Assembly (NCBI GenBank): GCA_964518735.1
Contig: CAZFKQ010000015.1
Coordinates: 16,979 to 80,978, forward strand
Direction: 5' to 3'
DNA length: 64,000 bases
Source of the DNA: an uncultured Pseudomonas sp.
Lineage (GTDB): Bacteria; Pseudomonadota; Gammaproteobacteria; Pseudomonadales; Pseudomonadaceae
Positions 16,085-40,723 of the stretch are shown here, piece after piece; position 1 is the stretch's first letter, and every line of letters begins with the position of its first letter. The translations under genes were made by a program, and so were the position numbers. The notes under the pieces were generated by a model. The model did not search any database, was not told where the DNA came from, and saw only the letters and a list, made by a program, of their open reading frames with translations.

Positions 16085-17083
16085 ATGTCGTCATCCCCTC
16101 GCGGGGCCTTGCCTCTGGGCGAGCGCGCCTTGCTGTTCGCGCAACTGGCGGCCATGGAAAGGGCTGGTTTGCCGGCAGACAAGGCCCTGGCCACTCTGCA
16201 ACTGCAGCCCGATACGCAAAAGCGGGTCGCGGCCATGTCCCGGTTGCTGGCTCAAGGGCTGGACCTGGCCCGTTCCGGGCAAAAGTCCGGGGTGTTCACG
16301 CCCTTGGACGCCACTCTGCTGCAGGCTGCGCAGAGCGCTGGCAGCCCGGCGCGAGTGTATGAGCGTCTGGCTGAGCGCTGCGCAAACAAGGCCGCGCAAG
16401 CCAAGGCCCTGCAATCGCGTCTGTTGCTGCCCGCAGCTGTGCTGGTGCTGGCGCTGTTGATCCAGCCCTTGCCAAGCCTGGTAGCGGGCCACTTGAGTCT
16501 GTTTGGTTACCTGTGGGGCGTACTCAAGCCGTTGCTGATCCTGTCTGCCTTGCTCCTGATCGTGCGCCAGGGGTTGCAGCGCCTGGAACGCCCGGCCGCA
16601 TTGCGGGCCAGTGCCGCCGATGCCTGGCTGCTGCGTATACCGCTGCTTGGTCAGGCTCATGCGCGGCGCAACACGCGGGATTTCTTCGAGAGCCTGGGGT
16701 TGATGCTGGAGGCGGGGCTGCCGATGTTCGAGGCCCTGCCCAAGGCTGCTGCGACCCTGAGCAACAGCCAGTTGCGACAGGACTTTATCGGCCTGCAGCA
16801 ACGCGTGCAGGCGGGTGCGCCGCTGGCTCAGGCCATCCTGGCGCTGGAGTTCCCCGGCAAACCACAGCTGGCCAGTCTGATTCGCACGGGTGAGGCCAGT
16901 GGTACCTTGCCGGCGACCTTGCTGGCCTATGCCAGTCATGAGTCGCTGGCACTAGCTGAGTTCCAGGAGCAGCTGGCGACCTGGTTGCCACGCCTGGTGT
17001 ATGTCGCCGTGGCCTTGTGGATGGCATACGGCTTGCTGACGGGCGGCGGCATCGTTCCGCACTTGCCTGCGGAGCTGGGCTGA
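16085..17083 (+). CDS. Orphan GspF/PilC-family platform protein
   Basis: Two T2SSF repeats: FAQLAAMERAGLP and FFESLGLMLEAGLPMFEAL...GEASGTL, each followed by a TM helix. Confidence 0.82.
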   Translation: MSSSPRGALPLGERALLFAQLAAMERAGLPADKALATLQLQPDTQKRVAAMSRLLAQGLDLARSGQKSGVFTPLDATLLQAAQSAGSPARVYERLAERCANKAAQAKALQSRLLLPAAVLVLALLIQPLPSLVAGHLSLFGYLWGVLKPLLILSALLLIVRQGLQRLERPAALRASAADAWLLRIPLLGQAHARRNTRDFFESLGLMLEAGLPMFEALPKAAATLSNSQLRQDFIGLQQRVQAGAPLAQAILALEFPGKPQLASLIRTGEASGTLPATLLAYASHESLALAEFQEQLATWLPRLVYVAVALWMAYGLLTGGGIVPHLPAELG

Positions 17084-32360: not shown

Positions 32361-32555
32361 TTAGTGCTCGCGCGGCGGAAGCTCGCCGGAAAACAACTCG
32401 TCTTCGATGGTATCGCCAGGGATCACATGGCTTTCCGAGGCCCAGGCGCCCAGATCGATCAGCTTGCAGCGCTCGCTGCAGAAAGGCCGGCTCGGGCTTT
32501 GCGGGCCCCATTCGACGGGGGCGCCGCAGGTTGGGCATTCAACAGTACTGCTCAA
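32361..32555 (-). CDS. yacG: DNA gyrase inhibitor
   Basis: CPTC...[17 protein letters not shown] zinc motif. Confidence 0.95.
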
Positions 32556-33163
32556 GGTTTTCCTCCACGCAGGGTCAGGTAAAAGTGGTGCAGACGCTCG
32601 ACCTCGTTGCGCAGCCAGGCCTGGTCGCGGTCGTTGTGCAGCACATCGTGAGCATGCCGCAAGCGTTCATCACGCTTGGCCTGTACATTGAGGATGGCTT
32701 GTATCTGCTCTGCTGAGGCCTGGTCGCGGGCCATGGTGCGCTGCAGTTGCAGTTGTTCGGGCACATCCACTACCAGTACGCGCTGGGTCATACGGTACTG
32801 GCCGGACTCGACCAGTAGCGGTGAAACCAGAATGGCATAGGGGGATTCTGCGCGCGCCAGGTAGCTGCGGATCTCCTCGCCGATCAACGGATGCAGCAGG
32901 CTTTCCAGCCAGCGCCGTTGTTGTTCGTCCTGGAAAATCAGCTGACGCAGTGCGCCACGATCAAGCTGACCGTCAGGCTGCAGGACGTGCGGGCCAAAAT
33001 GCTCAGCTATGCGAGCCAGCGCCGGACGGCCTGGCTCGACCACCCAGCGTGCGGCATGGTCGGCATCGACCAGATGCACGCCGAGTCGGGTGAAATGCTC
33101 GGCGGCGGCACTCTTGCCGCTACCGATGCCGCCTGTGAGTCCAAGAATCCAGGGTGTGCTCAT
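32552..33163 (-). CDS. coaE: Dephospho-CoA kinase
   Basis: [27 protein letters not shown]. Confidence 0.96.
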
Positions 33164-34030
33164 TTAAAACCGGGCAAATTGCAAATAGGCTCCAGTTATT
33201 TGATCACCCCAGAGCAGCGCAATCCAGCCGGCAATCGCCAGATAGGGGCCAAAGGGGATGGGCGTGCTGGTTTCTTGATTGCGCAAGCGCAGCATGATCA
33301 CACCCAGCACGGCGCCCACCAGCGATGACAGCAGAATGGTCAGCGGCAGGATTTGCCAGCCGCCCCAGGCGCCAAGCATGGCCAGCAGCTTGAAGTCGCC
33401 ATAGCCCATGCCTTCCTTGCCGGTCACCAGCTTGAACAGCCAGTACACCGACCACAGGCTCAGGTAGCCGGCAATCGCGCCCCACAGGGCATCGCCGAGG
33501 CTGGCGAACAAGCCGTGATAGTTGAGGATCAGCCCCAGCCAGAGCAGCGGCAGCACCAGCGTATCGGGCAGCAGTTGGTGGTCCGTATCGATCAGGCTCA
33601 TGGCCAGCAGGCCCCAGCTCAATACCAGCATGGCGCCGGCCTGCCAGCCGAAGCCGAAGTGCCAGGCTACATAGGCAGAGAGCAGGCCGCAGGTGAGCTC
33701 CACCAGCGGGTAGCGCTTACTGATAGGCGCCTTGCAGCTGGAGCATTTGCCGCGTAGCGCCAGCCAGCTCAGAACCGGGATGTTTTCCCAAGGCTTGATC
33801 TGGTGTCCGCAATGCGGGCAGCTGGAGTGCGGGAGGACCAGATTGAAGGTCTCGCCAGCGGGCTCTTCGGGCAGTTCGAGGATTTCCCGTGCCTGCATGC
33901 GCCATTCGCGCTGCATCATTTTTGGCAGGCGGTAGACCACCACATTGAGAAAGCTGCCGATCAGCAGGCCGAGCAGCAGTGCGGGTAAAACAAAGGCCGG
34001 CAAATTGCCGGCCAGGAGTTCAGCTGGCAT
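33164..34030 (-). CDS. pilD: Prepilin peptidase/N-methyltransferase
   Basis: GSFLNVVVYRLP, CPHC and CSSC, GMGYGDFKL, PFGPYLA. Confidence 0.97.
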   Translation of the reverse strand: MPAELLAGNLPAFVLPALLLGLLIGSFLNVVVYRLPKMMQREWRMQAREILELPEEPAGETFNLVLPHSSCPHCGHQIKPWENIPVLSWLALRGKCSSCKAPISKRYPLVELTCGLLSAYVAWHFGFGWQAGAMLVLSWGLLAMSLIDTDHQLLPDTLVLPLLWLGLILNYHGLFASLGDALWGAIAGYLSLWSVYWLFKLVTGKEGMGYGDFKLLAMLGAWGGWQILPLTILLSSLVGAVLGVIMLRLRNQETSTPIPFGPYLAIAGWIALLWGDQITGAYLQFARF

Positions 34031-34033
34031 TAA

Positions 34034-35254
34034 TCAACCTACAACAGAGCCGAGGGTGAATATGGGTAGGTACATGGCGATGATCAGGCCACCTACCAAT
34101 ACACCTAAAACCGCCATGATCATGGGCTCCATTAGTGTGGTTAGGTTGTCTACAGCGTTGTCGACCTCTGCCTCGTAAAACGAAGCAACCTTGTCGAGCA
34201 TTTCATCCAGTGCTCCTGACTCTTCGCCGATTGCGGTCATTTGAATCGCCATGCTTGGAAAGACGTCAACTGTACGCATAGCAAAGTTTAGTTGTATCCC
34301 AGAAGAGACATCCTGTTTTATCTTTTGCACTGCGTTACGGAAAACTACGTTGCCAGTGGCGCCGGCAACGGAGTCTAGCGCTTCAACTAGAGGCACCCCT
34401 GCTGAAAATGTAGTTGCCAGTGTGCGTGCATAACGTGCAACCACTGCCTTGTACATGATGTCGCCGACGATTGGCATTTTGAGCAGTGTGCGGTCCAGTG
34501 TGTCGCGAAACTTTTCTGAGCGTTTGTAGGTGTTTTGAAATAAAAATACGGCAGCGAACAGAAACCCTAGCACTGCGAACCACCACACCTGAATCCAGCG
34601 TGAAAGGTCTACAACCATTTGTGTGAAGCCGGGTAGTTCTGCTCCAAAGCCAGAAAATACATCTTCAAATTGCGGAACCACTTTGATCAACAGAATGGCT
34701 GTGACAATAACCGCAACGATGACAACTGCGATCGGATAGGTCATTGCTTTTTTAATTTTGGCTTTGAGTGCTTCGGTCTTTTCTTTGTAGGTTGCTACTC
34801 GGTCTAGCAGTGATTCCAAGGAGCCTGACTGTTCGCCAGCATCTACTAAATTGCAATACAGGTCGTCAAAGTACAGTGGCCTCTTGCGCAATGAAGAGGC
34901 AAAGCTATTGCCTGCGGCTACATCCTGCTTCACTTCGTCAACTAGCTTGCGCATGTTGGGGTTGTCGAAGCCTTCGCCGATTATATCGAACGATTGTAAC
35001 AGCGGTACGCCAGCTTTCATCATCGTCGCCATTTGTCGTGTGAACAGGGCGATATCCATCGGCTTAATTTTTTTGCCGGCGCTGAGAAATGACAAGCCTT
35101 CCTTGCGTACTTTGATCGGATTGATGCCCTGCTTGCGTAACTGGGCCTTTATCAATGCAGGGGATTGACCGTTGAGCTTGCCTTTAATTTTTGCGCCTTT
35201 TTTATCTGTACCTTCCCAGACATAGGAGCTGGTTTTGAGCGCTTTCTCAGCCAT
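34034..35254 (-). CDS. pilC: Type IV pilus platform protein
   Basis: FTRQMATMMKAGVPL, GEQSGSL, GEESGALD, EPMIMAVLG. Confidence 0.96.
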   Translation of the reverse strand: MAEKALKTSSYVWEGTDKKGAKIKGKLNGQSPALIKAQLRKQGINPIKVRKEGLSFLSAGKKIKPMDIALFTRQMATMMKAGVPLLQSFDIIGEGFDNPNMRKLVDEVKQDVAAGNSFASSLRKRPLYFDDLYCNLVDAGEQSGSLESLLDRVATYKEKTEALKAKIKKAMTYPIAVVIVAVIVTAILLIKVVPQFEDVFSGFGAELPGFTQMVVDLSRWIQVWWFAVLGFLFAAVFLFQNTYKRSEKFRDTLDRTLLKMPIVGDIMYKAVVARYARTLATTFSAGVPLVEALDSVAGATGNVVFRNAVQKIKQDVSSGIQLNFAMRTVDVFPSMAIQMTAIGEESGALDEMLDKVASFYEAEVDNAVDNLTTLMEPMIMAVLGVLVGGLIIAMYLPIFTLGSVVG

Positions 35255-35256
35255 GG

Positions 35257-36960
35257 TTAGTCCTTGGTCACGCGGTTGACTTCCTCAAGGCTGGTCACGC
35301 CCTGAATAGCTTTCAGTAAGCCGGAAGTTCGTAAGTCGTTGAAGCCGTCTTTTCGCATCTGCACGGCAATATCGATGGAGTTGCCTTCTTCCATGATAAT
35401 CCGTTGCAGGTTGGGCGTGTTTTTAACTACTTCATAAATACCAACACGTCCCTTGTAACCCCCTTTGCAGTTTTCACAGCCTATAGGGCCATAAAGCTTG
35501 AAGGTGCCAATCTTGTTTTCTGGGAAGCCTTCCTTGAGAAGTGCTTCGCGGGGTATGTCAACTTCTTTCTTGCAGCTATTGCAAAGCTTGCGGGCTAGGC
35601 GCTGGGCAATGATCAGGTTAACTGAGGTTGCAATGTTGAAAGAGGGGACGCCCATGTTGCGCAGGCGGGTCAGAGTTTCTGCCGCGCTGTTGGTATGCAG
35701 TGTAGACATAACCATGTGCCCAGTTTGGGCGGCTTTGATAGCAATTGAGGCTGTATCGAGGTCGCGAATCTCTCCGACCATTATGATGTCTGGGTCCTGC
35801 CGCAGAAAAGCGCGTAAGGCCTGGGTGAAGTCCATACCCTGTTTCGGGTTTACGTTGACTTGGTTGATGCCTTCCAAGTTAATTTCCACTGGGTCTTCGG
35901 CGGTGGAAATGTTCACGTCTACTGTGTTGAGTATGTTCAGGCCGGTATACAGTGAAACAGTCTTGCCTGATCCGGTTGGGCCAGTCACTAGAATCATGCC
36001 CTGTGGTTGCTTCAGAGCGCTCATGTAGAGGTCTTTCTGCTCTTCCTCGTAGCCAAGTGCATCAATACCCATTTGAGCGCTGCTGGGGTCGAGAATCCGC
36101 ATTACAATTTTCTCTCCCCACAAGGTGGGGAGGGTGTTGACCCGAAAGTCGATGGCCTTGGTTTTGGATATTTTCATCTTGATCCGGCCATCCTGAGGCT
36201 TGCGCCTTTCGGAAATATCTAAACCGGCCATGACCTTCAGGCGCGCGGATAGTCGGGGGGCTAGTTGAATAGGGGGGCGTGCCACTTCGTGTAGGATGCC
36301 GTCGGTACGGAAGCGTACTCTGTACGCTTTTTCATAGGGTTCAAAGTGCAGATCTGACGATCCTCCTTTGATTGCATCCAGCAGCATTTTGTTGACAAAG
36401 CGTACAACAGGAGCATCGTCAGCGTCGCCACCTGTGCTGTTATCATCGGCATCCTCATCAACTGCCTGGACGTCAAGTCCATCTAGATCTACGTCGCCCA
36501 AGTCCTCCATGCCGCTATTGCCGGAGTCAAAGAGTTTTTCGATGGCTTCGCCGAGCTTGTCATCATCGACAAGCAAGGATTCAGTGCTTAGTCCTGTACT
36601 GAACTGTACATCGGTTACGGCTTGGTGGTTGGTTGGATCTGATATCGCTATAAACAGCTTGTTGCCGCGCTTATGCAGCGGAAGGACTCGATGCTGACGG
36701 CAGAGTTTCTCGCTGACTAAGTCGCGTGGCTGGTTTTCTTTATCCAGGCAGCTGAGGTCAAAATAAGGTAGGCCGAACTGATCCGCCGCTACCTCGGTAA
36801 TGCTACGGCTACTGGCAATTTTATGTTGGACCAGATAGGTGACAAGCGGTATTTGGTTACGCTGTGCTTGTGCTTGTGCCTGGCTAGCAGTCTTGCTATC
36901 GAGCAACTCTGCTGCTACCAGTTGGCGGGCTAGACCTGTGAGGGGGGGGGTTTCACTCAT
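35257..36960 (-). CDS. pilB: Type IV pilus extension ATPase
   Basis: GPTGSGKT, LRQDPDIIMVGEIRD, STLHTN, CNSC/CENC zinc motif. Confidence 0.97.
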   Translation of the reverse strand: MSETPPLTGLARQLVAAELLDSKTASQAQAQAQRNQIPLVTYLVQHKIASSRSITEVAADQFGLPYFDLSCLDKENQPRDLVSEKLCRQHRVLPLHKRGNKLFIAISDPTNHQAVTDVQFSTGLSTESLLVDDDKLGEAIEKLFDSGNSGMEDLGDVDLDGLDVQAVDEDADDNSTGGDADDAPVVRFVNKMLLDAIKGGSSDLHFEPYEKAYRVRFRTDGILHEVARPPIQLAPRLSARLKVMAGLDISERRKPQDGRIKMKISKTKAIDFRVNTLPTLWGEKIVMRILDPSSAQMGIDALGYEEEQKDLYMSALKQPQGMILVTGPTGSGKTVSLYTGLNILNTVDVNISTAEDPVEINLEGINQVNVNPKQGMDFTQALRAFLRQDPDIIMVGEIRDLDTASIAIKAAQTGHMVMSTLHTNSAAETLTRLRNMGVPSFNIATSVNLIIAQRLARKLCNSCKKEVDIPREALLKEGFPENKIGTFKLYGPIGCENCKGGYKGRVGIYEVVKNTPNLQRIIMEEGNSIDIAVQMRKDGFNDLRTSGLLKAIQGVTSLEEVNRVTKD

Positions 36961-37038
36961 AAAATGTGTGCTGCGCAGTAGGGGGGCTCTCGCACTTATA
37001 GCCCAAATTCAAGAAAGGCCCAAGCAGCAGCTTCGCGG

Positions 37039-37063
37039 GTGACGAAATGTGTCACATCTTGTC
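37039..37063 (+). promoter_or_regulatory. Candidate PilR upstream activator sites
   Basis: GTGAC-N7-GTCAC inverted repeat plus a further TGTC, about 65-90 bp upstream of the sigma54 site. Confidence 0.5.
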
Positions 37064-37126
37064 AAAGATGCGGTCTTCTTCGGTGGCTGCTGGGGATGTA
37101 ATGGCTTCTAGGTGTTGTTTCTCGTA

Positions 37127-37143
37127 TTGGCATGCAATGTGCA
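37127..37143 (+). promoter_or_regulatory. Sigma54 -24/-12 promoter of the pilin genes
   Basis: TTGGCATGCAATGTGCA: GG 37129-37130, 10-nt spacer, GC 37141-37142. Confidence 0.8.
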
Positions 37144-37188
37144 TTTTCAAGCGCAGGTCGTTGACCTTAACCACACAGGAGCATTTCC

Positions 37189-37374
37189 ATGAAGTCCCTC
37201 AAGAAGCAAAAAGGCTTTACCCTGATCGAGCTGATGATCGTGGTTGCAATCATTGGTATTCTGGCTGCCATCGCCATTCCGCAGTTCAATGAGTATCGTG
37301 CCAAGGCGAACGACTCGTCTGCCAAGGCGGACACCAAGAACATGATCACCGTCATCTCTGCAGCAATGATCTGA
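37189..37374 (+). CDS. pilA: Truncated type IVa pilin, helix only (PilA-N-like)
   Basis: Class III leader [31 protein letters not shown]; 52-aa mature chain; RBS AGGAG. Confidence 0.92.
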
Positions 37375-37392
37375 TTTTCCAGGAGAATTTTT

Positions 37393-37839
37393 ATGAATAA
37401 GCAACTTATTGCCGCTTTGATGGCTGCTGGGCTGGGTGTTGCATCGAGCATGGCTTTCGCTGCTCCTGCTGCATTTCAGAACAACCAAGAAGTAACCGGC
37501 GGTGTCGGTAATGATTGTGCTCTTCTTGCTGAAGACGTGACCCTTGGCGTTTCCAAGAACGTGCATGGTGCTTATAACTGCGACGAAACAGAGAACCTTG
37601 TTCAGGTTGCTGCCTGTCATGAAGGTGGCAGCCGTCAGGTTGGTGTTGCCTGTGTTGACCTAGATCCGCTCGTTGTAGGTGATCAGCTGCCACCGGGTTG
37701 CGCTCAAGCAGGTGGTAACTCTACTATTCCGGATTACAAGGCTTTCTTCACCTCTAGTGAAGGTGGCGTGATGCAGGAATACCAGTTGGGTGCTCGTTGT
37801 GATGCGGGTACTATTGTTGGTATTGACGGTTTTGACTGA
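37393..37839 (+). CDS. Sec-exported Cys-rich protein, putative PilA-C-like pilin head
   Basis: Own RBS AGGAG; signal peptide MNKQLIAALMAAGLGVASSMAFA/A; 6 Cys; Gly-rich; directly after the truncated pilin. Confidence 0.8.
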   Translation: MNKQLIAALMAAGLGVASSMAFAAPAAFQNNQEVTGGVGNDCALLAEDVTLGVSKNVHGAYNCDETENLVQVAACHEGGSRQVGVACVDLDPLVVGDQLPPGCAQAGGNSTIPDYKAFFTSSEGGVMQEYQLGARCDAGTIVGIDGFD

Positions 37840-37870
37840 TCGGTTTGCGCTGATTTGATTGATACTGCTG

Positions 37871-37907
37871 AAGAAATCGCTTGGCTTAGCCAAGCGATTT
37901 CTTTTTG
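37871..37907 (+). terminator. Intrinsic terminator closing the two-gene pilin unit
   Basis: AAGAAATCGCTTGGC-TTA-GCCAAGCGATTTCTT (15-bp stem) then T-run. Confidence 0.88.
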
Positions 37908-38029
37908 TTTGTGCTGTATGCCTTTGAAATTCGTTATATCGAGTGCAGTGAGCGGATTTTAGTAAGTTTAATGAGTGTGTGGTGGATGAGGATGTTTAGC
38001 ACAGCAAATTATCACTGGGTTTCTCGCGC

Positions 38030-38839
38030 ATGACATTCTTCTCTGGTTGCTTCTTCGGGCTGCGTCTAGCGCTGAGGGCCCGTTTTTTACCTGTTTCGTT
38101 GTGGCTGCTTGGCCTGATTTTATTAGCGGCAGCGTTGGCCGCCCAGTTTAGTGGACGCCAGCCCGCCAGTGTTGCTTTGGATGTGGGTATTTCTACGATC
38201 CGTCTTGTTTTGCCTTTCGTTGTTGTTTTACTTGTTCAGGAAATCATTTCCCGCGAATTCGAGCGGCGTTATTTTTTGAATACCTTGAGTTTTCCGTTCA
38301 CGCGTGCACAGTTCCTATTGCAGCGTTTCTGTGCAGTTACCCTTCTTAGTCAAATGCTTTTGTTGGTGTCGGCTGCTGCTTTGGCGCTATCCGTTTGGCT
38401 GATTTCTGCAGGCTACGAGCAAGGCACTGCTGTAGCGTTGGGTAAGCATTATTGGCTAACCATCCTGTTCATCGCTGTAGAGCTCTGTGTTCTAGCGGCT
38501 TTAGCTACGCTTCTGGCAGTCACAGCCTCGACACCAAGCTTTGTGCTCATAGGTACCTTCGGTTTTCTACTGGTCGCTCGTTCTTTTGCTTCTATTATCG
38601 AGTTATTGGCTCGTAATCAATATGTGGTTCACGATGCGGAGCGCTATAGTGCAGGGATTGGCATGCTCGGTTACCTGTTGCCTGATCTGGGGGCTTTGGA
38701 TGTGCGGATGATCGCGCTTTATGGGCGCATGGAGTTTCTTCCGTCGGACTGGCTCTGGTTGGTGCTTTCTAGTGCATGCTACGCAGCAGGTCTGCTGGCA
38801 TTGGCAGTATGGGCGCTCAATCGAAAGCGTTTTGCCTGA
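38030..38839 (+). CDS. ABC-2 type permease (PilI/Xap-like)
   Basis: About 6 hydrophobic segments; ISREFERR...FPFTRAQFLLQRF; YLLPDL; C-terminal RKRFA. Confidence 0.8.
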   Translation: MTFFSGCFFGLRLALRARFLPVSLWLLGLILLAAALAAQFSGRQPASVALDVGISTIRLVLPFVVVLLVQEIISREFERRYFLNTLSFPFTRAQFLLQRFCAVTLLSQMLLLVSAAALALSVWLISAGYEQGTAVALGKHYWLTILFIAVELCVLAALATLLAVTASTPSFVLIGTFGFLLVARSFASIIELLARNQYVVHDAERYSAGIGMLGYLLPDLGALDVRMIALYGRMEFLPSDWLWLVLSSACYAAGLLALAVWALNRKRFA

Positions 38840-38841
38840 AT

Positions 38842-39675
38842 ATGTCACGTCGTCATATCCCCCTATTGTTAGCCTTGCTGGGTTTCACTCTATTTGCAGG
38901 TGTTGCTTTCTGGCGTGCCCAATTACCAATCAAGCCAAGCCTTGAGGCGGGTTTGGATCGGGTTGTAATAAGTGCTCCCATCTTGGTTGTGCTCTACGGC
39001 GGTGATCGCTTCCTTGCTGCAGATTTGGAAGTTGTGCGCCTAGCTGCTACCGGTCTCGATGATAGGGGGGTAGACACGGGATACTTGGTTCGCGCTCAGC
39101 AAGAGGTTGCCCGGCTCAATCCCTGTCATGAAGACAATTACTATCTGGCTAATGGTCTGCTTACCTGGGGTGGGGCAGTTGCGGAGGGTAATCGGGTGCT
39201 TGAGGCGGCGGTGGAGTGTCGTTTTTGGGACTATGTCCCCCCGTTTTTTTATGGCGTCAATTTGAGCTTTTTTCAGCGTGATAACGCGAAGGCCGCTCGC
39301 GTGCTGGAGTTTGGCGCTGAGCGCTCCCCAGAGAATGCCGCCGCTTTGCGTAAGCTCGCGATTATGCTGCAGGCTGAGCAGTTTTCCGACGAGCGTCTGG
39401 TGTTGGGGTATTTGACTCAGCAGCGCGATTCGACCAGTGATCCAAAGCTCAGAGGGATGCTTAATAAGCGAGTGATCCGTATTCAGGGGCTTTTAGATTT
39501 GCGTTTGGCGCAGCGGCGGTATGAAAAAGTACGCGGCCCTTTGCAAAGCCTTCAACAGTTGCTCGATAGTGGTGAGTTGGCGAAAATTCCCGATGATCCG
39601 CTGCGTATTGGCTATGAAATCAAAAACGGCCGTATCGAATTGAAGAAACTTAAAATCGCTGGGATGGAGGGCTAG
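38842..39675 (+). CDS. Membrane-anchored TPR-like protein (PilG/XapA-like)
   Basis: N-terminal TM; LNPCHEDNYYLA...RFWDYVPPFFYGVNLSFFQRD helical repeats; ATG 38842 just after the permease stop. Confidence 0.7.
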   Translation: MSRRHIPLLLALLGFTLFAGVAFWRAQLPIKPSLEAGLDRVVISAPILVVLYGGDRFLAADLEVVRLAATGLDDRGVDTGYLVRAQQEVARLNPCHEDNYYLANGLLTWGGAVAEGNRVLEAAVECRFWDYVPPFFYGVNLSFFQRDNAKAARVLEFGAERSPENAAALRKLAIMLQAEQFSDERLVLGYLTQQRDSTSDPKLRGMLNKRVIRIQGLLDLRLAQRRYEKVRGPLQSLQQLLDSGELAKIPDDPLRIGYEIKNGRIELKKLKIAGMEG

Positions 39676-39677
39676 CC

Positions 39678-40595
39678 TTGGGCGTGGCGCTGGAGTTTTT
39701 GCAAGTCAGCCAGACCTTTCGCGCCAAGGGCAAGGAAGTCCGTGCTCTGCGGGATGTGAGCTTTGCCTTGGATGAGGGTGAGGTTTTTGGTTTTGTTGGG
39801 CCGAATGGTGCGGGCAAGTCCACAACCATAAAGGTGATGCTGGACATCATTAATGACTATCAGGGGCGAGTGCTTATTTACGGAGTTGATGCCTGTCGCG
39901 CCGAATCCCGCACAGATATTGCCTACGTACCGGAGTCTCCAGCGCTATATGAGCAGTTCACTCCGCTGGAGATCCTGCGAATGGGTCTTTCCATGCACGG
40001 TATCAAGCGCAAGGATGCTGATGCTTGGTGTATGCAATGGTTGGAGCGCTTTTCTGTTGCTGCGGCCGCCAAGCGCCGCATTCGTGAGTTGTCCAAGGGT
40101 ACGGTGCAGCGTGTGGCGCTTGCTCATGCCATGGTCGTTCAGCCCAAGTTGCTGATTCTCGATGAGCCGCTTTCTGGTCTCGATCCGGTGGGGCGCAAGG
40201 ATGTGGTGGATATCCTCAATGAGTACAAGAGCCAAGGCGGTGCGATCTTTTTCACTTCCCATGTGCTGCACGATGTCGAGCGTATTGCCGACCGTTTTGG
40301 CTTTATCAACAAGGGGGAGTTGTTGACGGTGCGCTCCCCGCGTGAATTGGCGGCTGAGCGTGCAGATACCTTGCTGGTGCGTTTCAACGCTGCGGAAGGC
40401 TTTGCGCCGGAAGCCAAACGTCTGCGTGAGGGGGAGTTCGAGTGTGAGCTGATGCAGGCGGAACTGCCTGCTTTTGTCACACGGCTCAATCAGGCTGCTG
40501 GGCATATCCTCACGATCAAGCCGGCTGTCTCGCTGGAAACCGTATTCTTCAAGATTCTCGGTGATGCCGCGCGCAAGGATGCGCCGGTAGTCTGA
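39678..40595 (+). CDS. ABC transporter ATPase (PilH/XapD-like)
   Basis: GPNGAGKST, variant signature LSKGT, LILDEPLSGLDP, FFTSH; TTG start. Confidence 0.88.
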   Translation: MGVALEFLQVSQTFRAKGKEVRALRDVSFALDEGEVFGFVGPNGAGKSTTIKVMLDIINDYQGRVLIYGVDACRAESRTDIAYVPESPALYEQFTPLEILRMGLSMHGIKRKDADAWCMQWLERFSVAAAAKRRIRELSKGTVQRVALAHAMVVQPKLLILDEPLSGLDPVGRKDVVDILNEYKSQGGAIFFTSHVLHDVERIADRFGFINKGELLTVRSPRELAAERADTLLVRFNAAEGFAPEAKRLREGEFECELMQAELPAFVTRLNQAAGHILTIKPAVSLETVFFKILGDAARKDAPVV

Positions 40596-40647
40596 ATCAG
40601 TTGTATGTCGCTTTGCCGGATGTTTTTCGGCAAAATGGCGCCCGCAA

Positions 40648-40723
40648 GCCGGTGTAGCTCAGTCGGTAGAGCAGCGCACTCGTAACGCGAAGGTCGCAGG
40701 TTCGATTCCTGTCTCCGGCACCA
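40648..40723 (+). tRNA. tRNA-Thr(CGT)
   Basis: 76 nt, loop CTCGTAA, TTCGA T-loop, CCA end; has stem mismatches. Confidence 0.92.

Follow-up and report, generated by a model that had tools for sequence, protein, structure and literature searches.

A 64-kilobase (kb) stretch of the genome of an uncultured Pseudomonas sp. (the window, whose positions serve as coordinates throughout) carries two adjacent genes in the major-pilin slot divergent from pilB, one coding for a type IV prepilin of 61 amino acids (aa) and the other for a secreted protein of 148 aa, here called the partner. We think it probable, if well short of certain, that the major type IVa pilin of this locus is made of two chains, the short pilin supplying the helix and the partner the head, as an earlier note on the same DNA had suggested from its reading of the two genes.

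The pilin gene lies at 37189-37374 on the plus strand and ends in a TGA at 37372-37374. The leader of its product is 9 aa long (MKSLKKQKG), with Gly at -1, and is followed by F+1, E5 and P22 in a mature chain of 52 aa; basic leader, Gly, F+1, E+5, alpha1-N and P22 together make up the class III signal peptide of type IVa pilins. Matches to PF07963 (N_methyl, E 7e-12) and to TIGR02532 (E 7e-11, above cutoff) point the same way. When the pilin is searched against the Protein Data Bank (PDB), its alignments to solved pilins cover only residues 1-50, so the chain appears to end with helix alpha1, and the mature polypeptide of 52 aa contains no alpha/beta head with a D-region. A motif scan of the window found no other prepilin motif. 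The ORF (open reading frame) map, the PDB alignment and the motif scan hence agree with the earlier description of a 61-aa pilin (52 aa mature) that ends at alpha1 and stands alone in the slot divergent from pilB.

The best solved relatives of this pilin are the Geobacter 'geopilin domain 1' chains (7tgg, 9egp and 2m7g/6vk9). The earlier note had placed it closer to Geobacter PilA-N than to the pilin of P. aeruginosa PAK, and this is borne out, if modestly: HMMER gives 58-67 bits for PilA-N (E 3e-15 to 3e-18) against 45 bits for PAK (E 5.6e-11). Beyond residue 24, a hand count on the alignment yields 9/26 identities to Geobacter and 7/26 to PAK.

Short pilins of this kind are common among the relatives found by sequence search. 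The best 120 span 58-104 aa, and 116 of these 120 are 58-64 aa long; those with names come from Stutzerimonas, Ectopseudomonas (mendocina, alcaliphila and composti) and other Pseudomonas, and are annotated as PilA, 'Tfp structural protein' or 'type IV pilin protein'. The C-terminus of the window pilin is a hydrophobic stretch, and its C-terminal half is 84-97% conserved across the Pseudomonadaceae loci compared below (67-72% in the divergent loci L020-L023); the helical hydrophobic moment computed for alpha1-C was uninformative. Two other assignments were considered for the pilin. It is not of the Tad/Flp type, its leader being 9 aa long, F1 and P22 being present and its neighbours being pilBCD. 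Nor does it qualify as an 'e-pilus' nanowire pilin: its aromatic residues are F1, F24 and Y27 (3/52, or 5.8%), as against the approximately 9% or more used as a criterion in the Geobacter literature.

The partner gene (37393-37839, plus strand), the proposed head chain, begins 18 nucleotides (nt) after the pilin stop. Inside this gap lies an AGGAG ribosome-binding site (RBS; 37381-37385, plus strand), 8 nt upstream of the start, and the product has a Sec-type signal peptide (SSMAFA|AP) preceding a mature chain of about 125 aa; on each of these points direct reading of the sequence upholds what had been claimed for a second gene. The partner has no match in Pfam or NCBIfam, yet it belongs to a large family, with 52 relatives recovered by a word-indexed search and 205 clusters at 50% identity by an exhaustive profile search. 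A genome scan whose word patterns were too narrow returned 4 species representatives, far below this family size, and a metagenome scan returned 4 loci. Among the 150 matches listed, relatives are 62-174 aa long, most of them 125-174 aa, and none is fused to a pilin N-terminus. All 15 partner sequences that were retrieved start with a Sec signal peptide. Across 76 diverse partners six cysteines are invariant while mean column identity is only 29%, and the retention of six invariant cysteines in a family of 205 clusters at 50% identity argues that the partner is under purifying selection. A lipoprotein can be rejected, there being no Cys at +1.

Two AlphaFold models of the partner reached pLDDT (predicted local distance difference test) values of 77 and 86.5, the better of them with a pTM (predicted template-modelling score) of 0.73 and a deep alignment, and on these models we are confident in predicting a mostly beta secreted domain of head-like size. 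Taken together, 52 and 125 aa fall within the size range of full-length pilins.

The pair also appears to be organised as a major pilin locus. A candidate sigma54-type (-24/-12) promoter site, TGGCATGCAATGTGCA (37128-37143, plus strand), lies 61 nt 5' of the pilin ATG; the pattern has two matches in the window as against 0.66 expected by chance, the other exact match being TGGCATACGGCTTGCT at 17022-17037. Of 18 related loci, 11 carry the motif at -61/-62 relative to the pilin start codon, and three divergent ones carry it at -95; control of pilA by RpoN and PilR is well established in Pseudomonas. No terminator is found in the gap between pilin and partner. An intrinsic terminator follows the partner gene (37870-37904, plus strand; 16-bp stem, 3-nt loop and T-run), with a folding energy of -28.6 kcal/mol and z = -5.2. 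The earlier note had reported a terminator of 15 bp, of which the terminator stands and the stem length is corrected to 16 bp; its view that both genes look co-transcribed is likewise retained, with one promoter site before them, one terminator after and none between, so that by appearance pilin and partner form one transcription unit.

On the other side of the pilin lies the minus-strand run coaE-pilD-pilC-pilB (32552-36960, by ORF layout), in which ORF calls, with Pfam labels taken from syntenic loci, place the prepilin peptidase pilD at 33164-34030, the platform protein pilC at 34034-35254 and the assembly ATPase pilB at 35257-36960. The Pseudomonas pilin island is the interval from pilB to a tRNA-Thr gene, a definition said to go back to Kus in 2004 and Giltner in 2011. 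In the window its right-hand edge is a tRNA-Thr(CGU) gene (40648-40723, plus strand), and the space between pilB and this tRNA is filled exactly by five genes: pilin, partner and a trio of ATP-binding cassette (ABC) transporter-associated genes to which we return below. G+C content is about 50% (approximately 44-57%) across 34000-40600, from pilC through the ABC ATPase gene, as against 61% for the whole window; this low-G+C block, which ends near tRNA-Thr and takes in two assembly genes, pilB and pilC, is island-like in composition. The locus thereby shows the genomic marks of a major pilin, namely divergence from pilB, a sigma54 site and a tRNA-Thr boundary, and as far as sequence can tell its position and expression signals match those of a major pilA.

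Comparison with other loci also bears on the pair. Mapping of homologues and their neighbourhoods found the partner ORF in 18/18 complete loci, 11-27 nt after the pilin stop and in various frames, with purine-rich RBS-like sites (GGAG, GAGA or AGGG) 5' of the partner ATG in loci other than the window. In the window and 17 related loci, 15 of them with a whole pilB, the pair fills the major-pilin slot divergent from pilB, and no other pilin is found there. The arrangement is also kept in L020-L027. Eight loci (L008-L015) constitute an independent test of the linkage, as they were recruited via the pilin alone. The linkage further holds in L020-L023, where partners are about 33% identical to that of the window or go undetected by tblastn, and in Thauera (L027). 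Going beyond what the earlier note described, the arrangement is the common pilin allele of the stutzeri and mendocina groups and belongs to a cassette of five genes that includes an ABC transporter. Strains that carry the cassette include E. mendocina NK-01 (pilin AEB56919.1) and Stutzerimonas frequens (CP071899.1).

When each locus is compared with the window genes, the pilin is 67-97% identical, pilB 79-90% where complete (falling to 64-66% in L018 and L019, whose matches are partial and lie at contig ends) and the ABC ATPase 64-82%, while the partner, at 33-69%, has diverged more than any other gene in each locus. A near-invariant helix gene adjoining a hypervariable partner gene is the pattern predicted for a split pilin; one-chain pilins show the same contrast between helix and head within a single polypeptide. 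The tail of the pilin also differs with the class of partner: mendocina-type partners are paired with the tail QADVKNSISVMTAAQR/L, and window-type partners with a different 16-residue tail.

Two further features of these loci deserve mention. The partner ATG of the window shares the frame of the pilin (18-nt gap, 37372-37395), such that a ribosome reading past the TGA would make a fused protein with the signal peptide in its interior; the gaps of 11-27 nt and the other frames seen elsewhere indicate that the shared frame is a coincidence. In many loci, moreover, a second short prepilin gene (59-65 aa) lies directly 3' of the partner, giving the order pilin, partner, pilin 2 and ABC trio (L004:6392-6574; approximately 6736-6934 in L008-L011; 6701-6917 in L012-L015), and the second pilin of L004 has Ala instead of Gly at -1. 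The corresponding interval of the window (37840-38029) contains no second pilin gene, only the terminator.

We infer the following scheme from the Geobacter precedent, on which it is modelled. The pilin would be inserted in the inner membrane, where PilD would cleave and methylate it at G9|F10 to leave a helix of 52 aa. Sec would export the partner, whose signal peptide would be removed after AFA and whose cysteines would pair into three disulfides, and the mature partner would then dock on the periplasmic half of alpha1 (residues approximately 25-52, with its hydrophobic end). PilB and PilC would polymerise the non-covalent heterodimer of pilin and partner into a filament with a core of conserved helices and a surface of variable partner. 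Such a filament would function as does one built of a one-chain pilin, save that its exposed part could be exchanged or diversified without altering the assembly-competent helix.

Several observations weigh against a two-chain pilin, most of them concerning the partner. The partner was compared with all PDB chains by phmmer, using the single sequence and two family profiles and listing matches to E <= 10; no PilA-C and no pilin head was found by sequence or by either profile, and the set includes the Geobacter pilus structure with PilA-C (PMC10710030). With the single sequence, a match to 8tob_GB, the C-terminal half of an Acinetobacter pilin, appeared at E 0.45 and was gone with both profiles. 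Foldseek searches of the PDB with both models gave best E-values of 0.45-1.3 at template-modelling scores below 0.3 and listed no pilin, though small beta domains are hard for this method. As Foldseek matched neither model, the role of head domain is assigned from context, not from fold. Among the 150 listed relatives the lack of any fused pilin-partner protein means that recent gene fission finds no support. Linked genes that are simply inherited together could account for the covariation of pilin tail with partner class, and the second short pilin present in many loci could make subunit composition more complex. Finally, our view takes in 64 kb of a genome that may hold a full-length pilin elsewhere. 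Of the earlier suggestion that the partner is PilA-C-like, the architecture is therefore upheld and the homology is not, there being no PDB match for the sequence, the profiles or the AlphaFold models; we regard the partner as a putative analogue of PilA-C in position and type rather than a demonstrated homologue.

With no pilin head matched by the partner in sequence or fold searches, the alternative that survives best, although we hold it unlikely, is that it acts outside the filament as a pilin-specific accessory (a periplasmic chaperone, stabiliser or modifier), its role being comparable to that of the tfp accessory genes after pilA in P. aeruginosa pilin groups, and that the pilus is helix-only, as in Tad/Flp systems. 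Pseudomonas pilin islands as a rule have accessory genes 3' of pilA, and strict adjacency and operon structure would fit an accessory equally well. Helix-only pili do exist, as the Tad pilus of Caulobacter attests (PMC10710030). However, a chaperone of a near-invariant helix should itself be conserved, and the partner gene evolves faster than any other in the locus. A helix-only pilus should conversely vary in the exposed C-terminal half of its pilin, which is instead conserved to the degree given above for both the Pseudomonadaceae loci and L020-L023, and the hydrophobic end of the pilin contrasts with the polar patch at the C-terminus of Tad pilins (PMC10710030).

A second alternative leaves the relationship of pilin and partner aside and questions whether the short pilin is the main subunit at all. 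A full-length pilin encoded elsewhere would then build the pilus, and the cassette would specify a minor or regulatory pilin, for which the P. stutzeri PilAII, reportedly an antagonistic pilin, offers a comparison, or an export pseudopilus with the partner and the ABC proteins as cargo or partners. We consider this rather improbable. It gains from the visibility of only 64 kb of the genome, from the position of the cassette apart from pilBCD in Thauera and in L020-L023, and from the second short pilin gene of many loci; the Geobacter PilA-N/C filament has, moreover, been argued by Gu et al. (2021, as relayed in PMC9207759) to serve secretion and not to be an external pilus. It is hard to reconcile, though, with a pair that occupies the exact major-pilin slot in the window and 17 loci with a sigma54 site typical of highly expressed pilA, and with the wide occurrence of the short pilin in named Stutzerimonas and Ectopseudomonas genomes.

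That the locus is instead a full-length pilA decayed by a nonsense mutation or a sequencing error, with a fortuitous or unrelated second ORF, has in its favour that the partner ATG is in the pilin frame in the window, where read-through would fuse both, and can be set aside with near certainty, as well over 100 independent clusters (90% identity) have their stop in this position, gap (11-27 nt) and frame vary among loci, the partner has an RBS and a conserved Sec signal peptide that would be meaningless inside a pilin, and its 205 clusters (50% identity) keep six invariant cysteines. The short pilin relatives, the partner family and the variable gaps refute sequencing error and pseudogene alike, and the TGA at 37372-37374, on which the earlier note's proposal hung, is genuine by the lengths of the best 120 relatives (58-104 aa) and the variation in gaps and frames.

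Returning to the two-chain pilin, the conserved unit around it comprises five genes: pilin, partner, an ABC-2 permease, a 277-aa protein and an ABC ATPase. The permease (38030-38839, plus strand, 269 aa) matches PF12730 marginally (E 1e-5, 26.1 bits against a curated cutoff of 27). The ATPase (39678-40595, plus strand, 305 aa) is DrrA/GldA-like and matches PF00005 at E 9e-29, and the presence of an ABC_tran ATPase and an ABC2_membrane permease in the same trio identifies an exporter of the ABC-2 type. Between them, the 277-aa protein (38842-39675, plus strand) is of no known family and has an N-terminal hydrophobic stretch and two invariant cysteines; judging its transmembrane and periplasmic parts by eye, we take it to be probably bitopic. 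A profile search gave 952 relatives of this protein, and among the 120 matches listed, all are from Stutzerimonas and Pseudomonas and all named entries are 'hypothetical'.

Wherever a locus extends far enough, the trio is found behind the pair, with a single exception, and it is kept in L020-L023, where the cassette does not adjoin pilBCD. The exception is a Thiohalomonadaceae metagenome-assembled genome (L003:7-513) with a partner homologue of 40% identity near pilR/pilS and without a downstream ABC trio; its contig begins inside or just before the partner gene, placing any upstream pilin outside view. In Thauera sp. CAU (JACTAH010000002.1, L027:7001-10496) the full five-gene cassette is found away from pilBCD, with hypothetical genes on one side and a gene for an rpoH-like sigma factor on the other. 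By our own reading of the sequences, the Thauera pilin is nearly identical to Pseudomonas pilins, which makes recent horizontal transfer of the cassette likely. Two other records carry labels from outside Pseudomonas. In CP123623.1, labelled Rhodoferax sp. (L024:7841-10397), the permease is split into 172 and 110 aa and the ATPase into 212 and 104 aa, and these split ORFs could stem from frameshifts or from errors in assembly; as the neighbourhood (coaE-pilDCB, nadC, DUF1631) is Pseudomonas-like, the record may bear the wrong organism label. A contig of 2955 bp labelled Candidimonas sp. has a 51-aa ORF between partner and ABC permease (L006:768-923); its sequence is Pseudomonas-like and it may be mis-binned.

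The trio is a candidate for a functionally linked accessory, perhaps in pilin stability or assembly, by analogy with the Geobacter genes discussed below. A much broader proposition, which we put forward tentatively and hold to be doubtful, is that the mobile five-gene cassette would represent a hitherto unrecognised class of two-chain type IVa pilus, widespread among Gamma- and Betaproteobacteria, with a novel Cys-rich head and an ABC transporter integral to split-pilin biogenesis, that the same logic might apply in Geobacter, and that two-gene pilins might be general and perhaps ancient. Ancestral pilins have been speculated to be two-gene proteins (PMC10710030).

At present the literature regards the two-gene pilin as an oddity of Geobacter and related bacteria, where it is entangled in the dispute over conductive wires and a secretion pseudopilus; in structural work the split pilin is assigned to Geobacter specifically (PMC10710030). 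Pseudomonas figures in the list of taxa with truncated pilins given by Shu et al. (2016), whose analysis of partners is restricted to Geobacter (PMC5174107). A P. stutzeri genome paper reports that no truncated pilin was found (PMC9118636). Full-text literature searches yielded no account of a pilin made by two genes for either Pseudomonas or Stutzerimonas, in keeping with the earlier note, whose author knew of none in Pseudomonas.

If the locus does encode a two-chain pilin, the split pilin would be a general solution, with a partner that is apparently unrelated in sequence and fold and is the most variable component, in a cassette apparently exchanged with Thauera. The question would move into aerobic, genetically tractable and naturally transformable bacteria. 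It would also mean that the exposed pilus surface, with its phage receptors and its part in adhesion, can be swapped or diversified while the assembly helix is left untouched. An uncharacterised ABC transporter would be flagged as likely to be linked to the pilus, offering a new reading of the Geobacter xapD phenotype; were the broader five-gene class real as well, xapD, which lies four genes after pilA-C and whose loss abolishes detectable PilA, would follow the same logic.

Among known systems, the closest likeness is to the PilA-N (GSU1496) and PilA-C (GSU1497) of G. sulfurreducens, a heterodimeric type IVa pilin (PDB 6VK9; PMC10710030, PMC5174107) whose filament is seen by electron cryo-microscopy to consist of PilA-N and the separately encoded PilA-C (PMC10710030). 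In both systems the type IVa prepilin is short, has a leader of few residues, F1, E5 and P22, and ends after alpha1 (best PDB match E 3e-18); both also have an adjacent co-directional downstream gene for a separately exported beta-rich protein of approximately 100-125 aa, a machine of the PilB/C/D type, and ABC-transporter genes after the pair. In Geobacter the last are found in the cluster GSU1498-1508 after GSU1496/1497, which includes the ABC ATPase gene xapD (GSU1501; PMC3495685, PMC5585712), and a xapD mutant has no detectable PilA (bioRxiv 10.1101/114900). We offer the possible parallel with the ABC trio of the window as a lead and not as a result. The differences are that the window partner has no detectable sequence or fold similarity to PilA-C and is hypervariable, with six invariant cysteines, that the window pilin stops at the helix and is without the aromatic polar tail of PilA-N, and that hosts of the window type are Gamma- and Betaproteobacteria, the cassette sitting in a Pseudomonas pilin island.

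With the one-chain pilins of Pseudomonas (P. aeruginosa PilA groups I-V; PAK, PDB 1OQW) the locus shares its slot, the tRNA-Thr boundary, the type of sigma54 promoter and the same pilBCD-coaE machinery genes, and the first 23 mature residues of PAK match those of the window pilin (1oqw, E 5.6e-11). Canonical pilins, however, are one chain of approximately 140-170 aa with a covalent alpha/beta head and a D-region disulfide, whereas the window pilin gene codes for no head. The corresponding island of P. aeruginosa PAO1 (PA4524-PA4526) is not known to have an ABC trio. The pilAI/pilAII locus of P. stutzeri belongs to the same species group and locus, and a second pilin gene is also found in L004 and L008-L015; as reportedly described by Graupner and Wackernagel in 2001, pilAI and pilAII code for two similar full-size pilins with no gene for a secreted protein between them.

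The Tad/Flp pilins resemble the window pilin in being very short and confined to alpha1 in their mature form, that of Caulobacter PilA being a helix-only chain of 45 aa (PMC10710030). They differ in their long leaders, the absence of F1 and P22, the Tad machinery and a polar patch that serves as the filament surface, as opposed to the type IVa hallmarks, hydrophobic end and partner of the window pilin. The Acinetobacter gp16 pilin (PDB 8TOB; PMC10980823) offers a further comparison, since its mature subunit likewise consists of two polypeptides, a helix part of approximately 70 aa and a C-terminal head. There, however, both come from one gene whose precursor is cut after folding, whereas the locus described here has two genes and two export signals.

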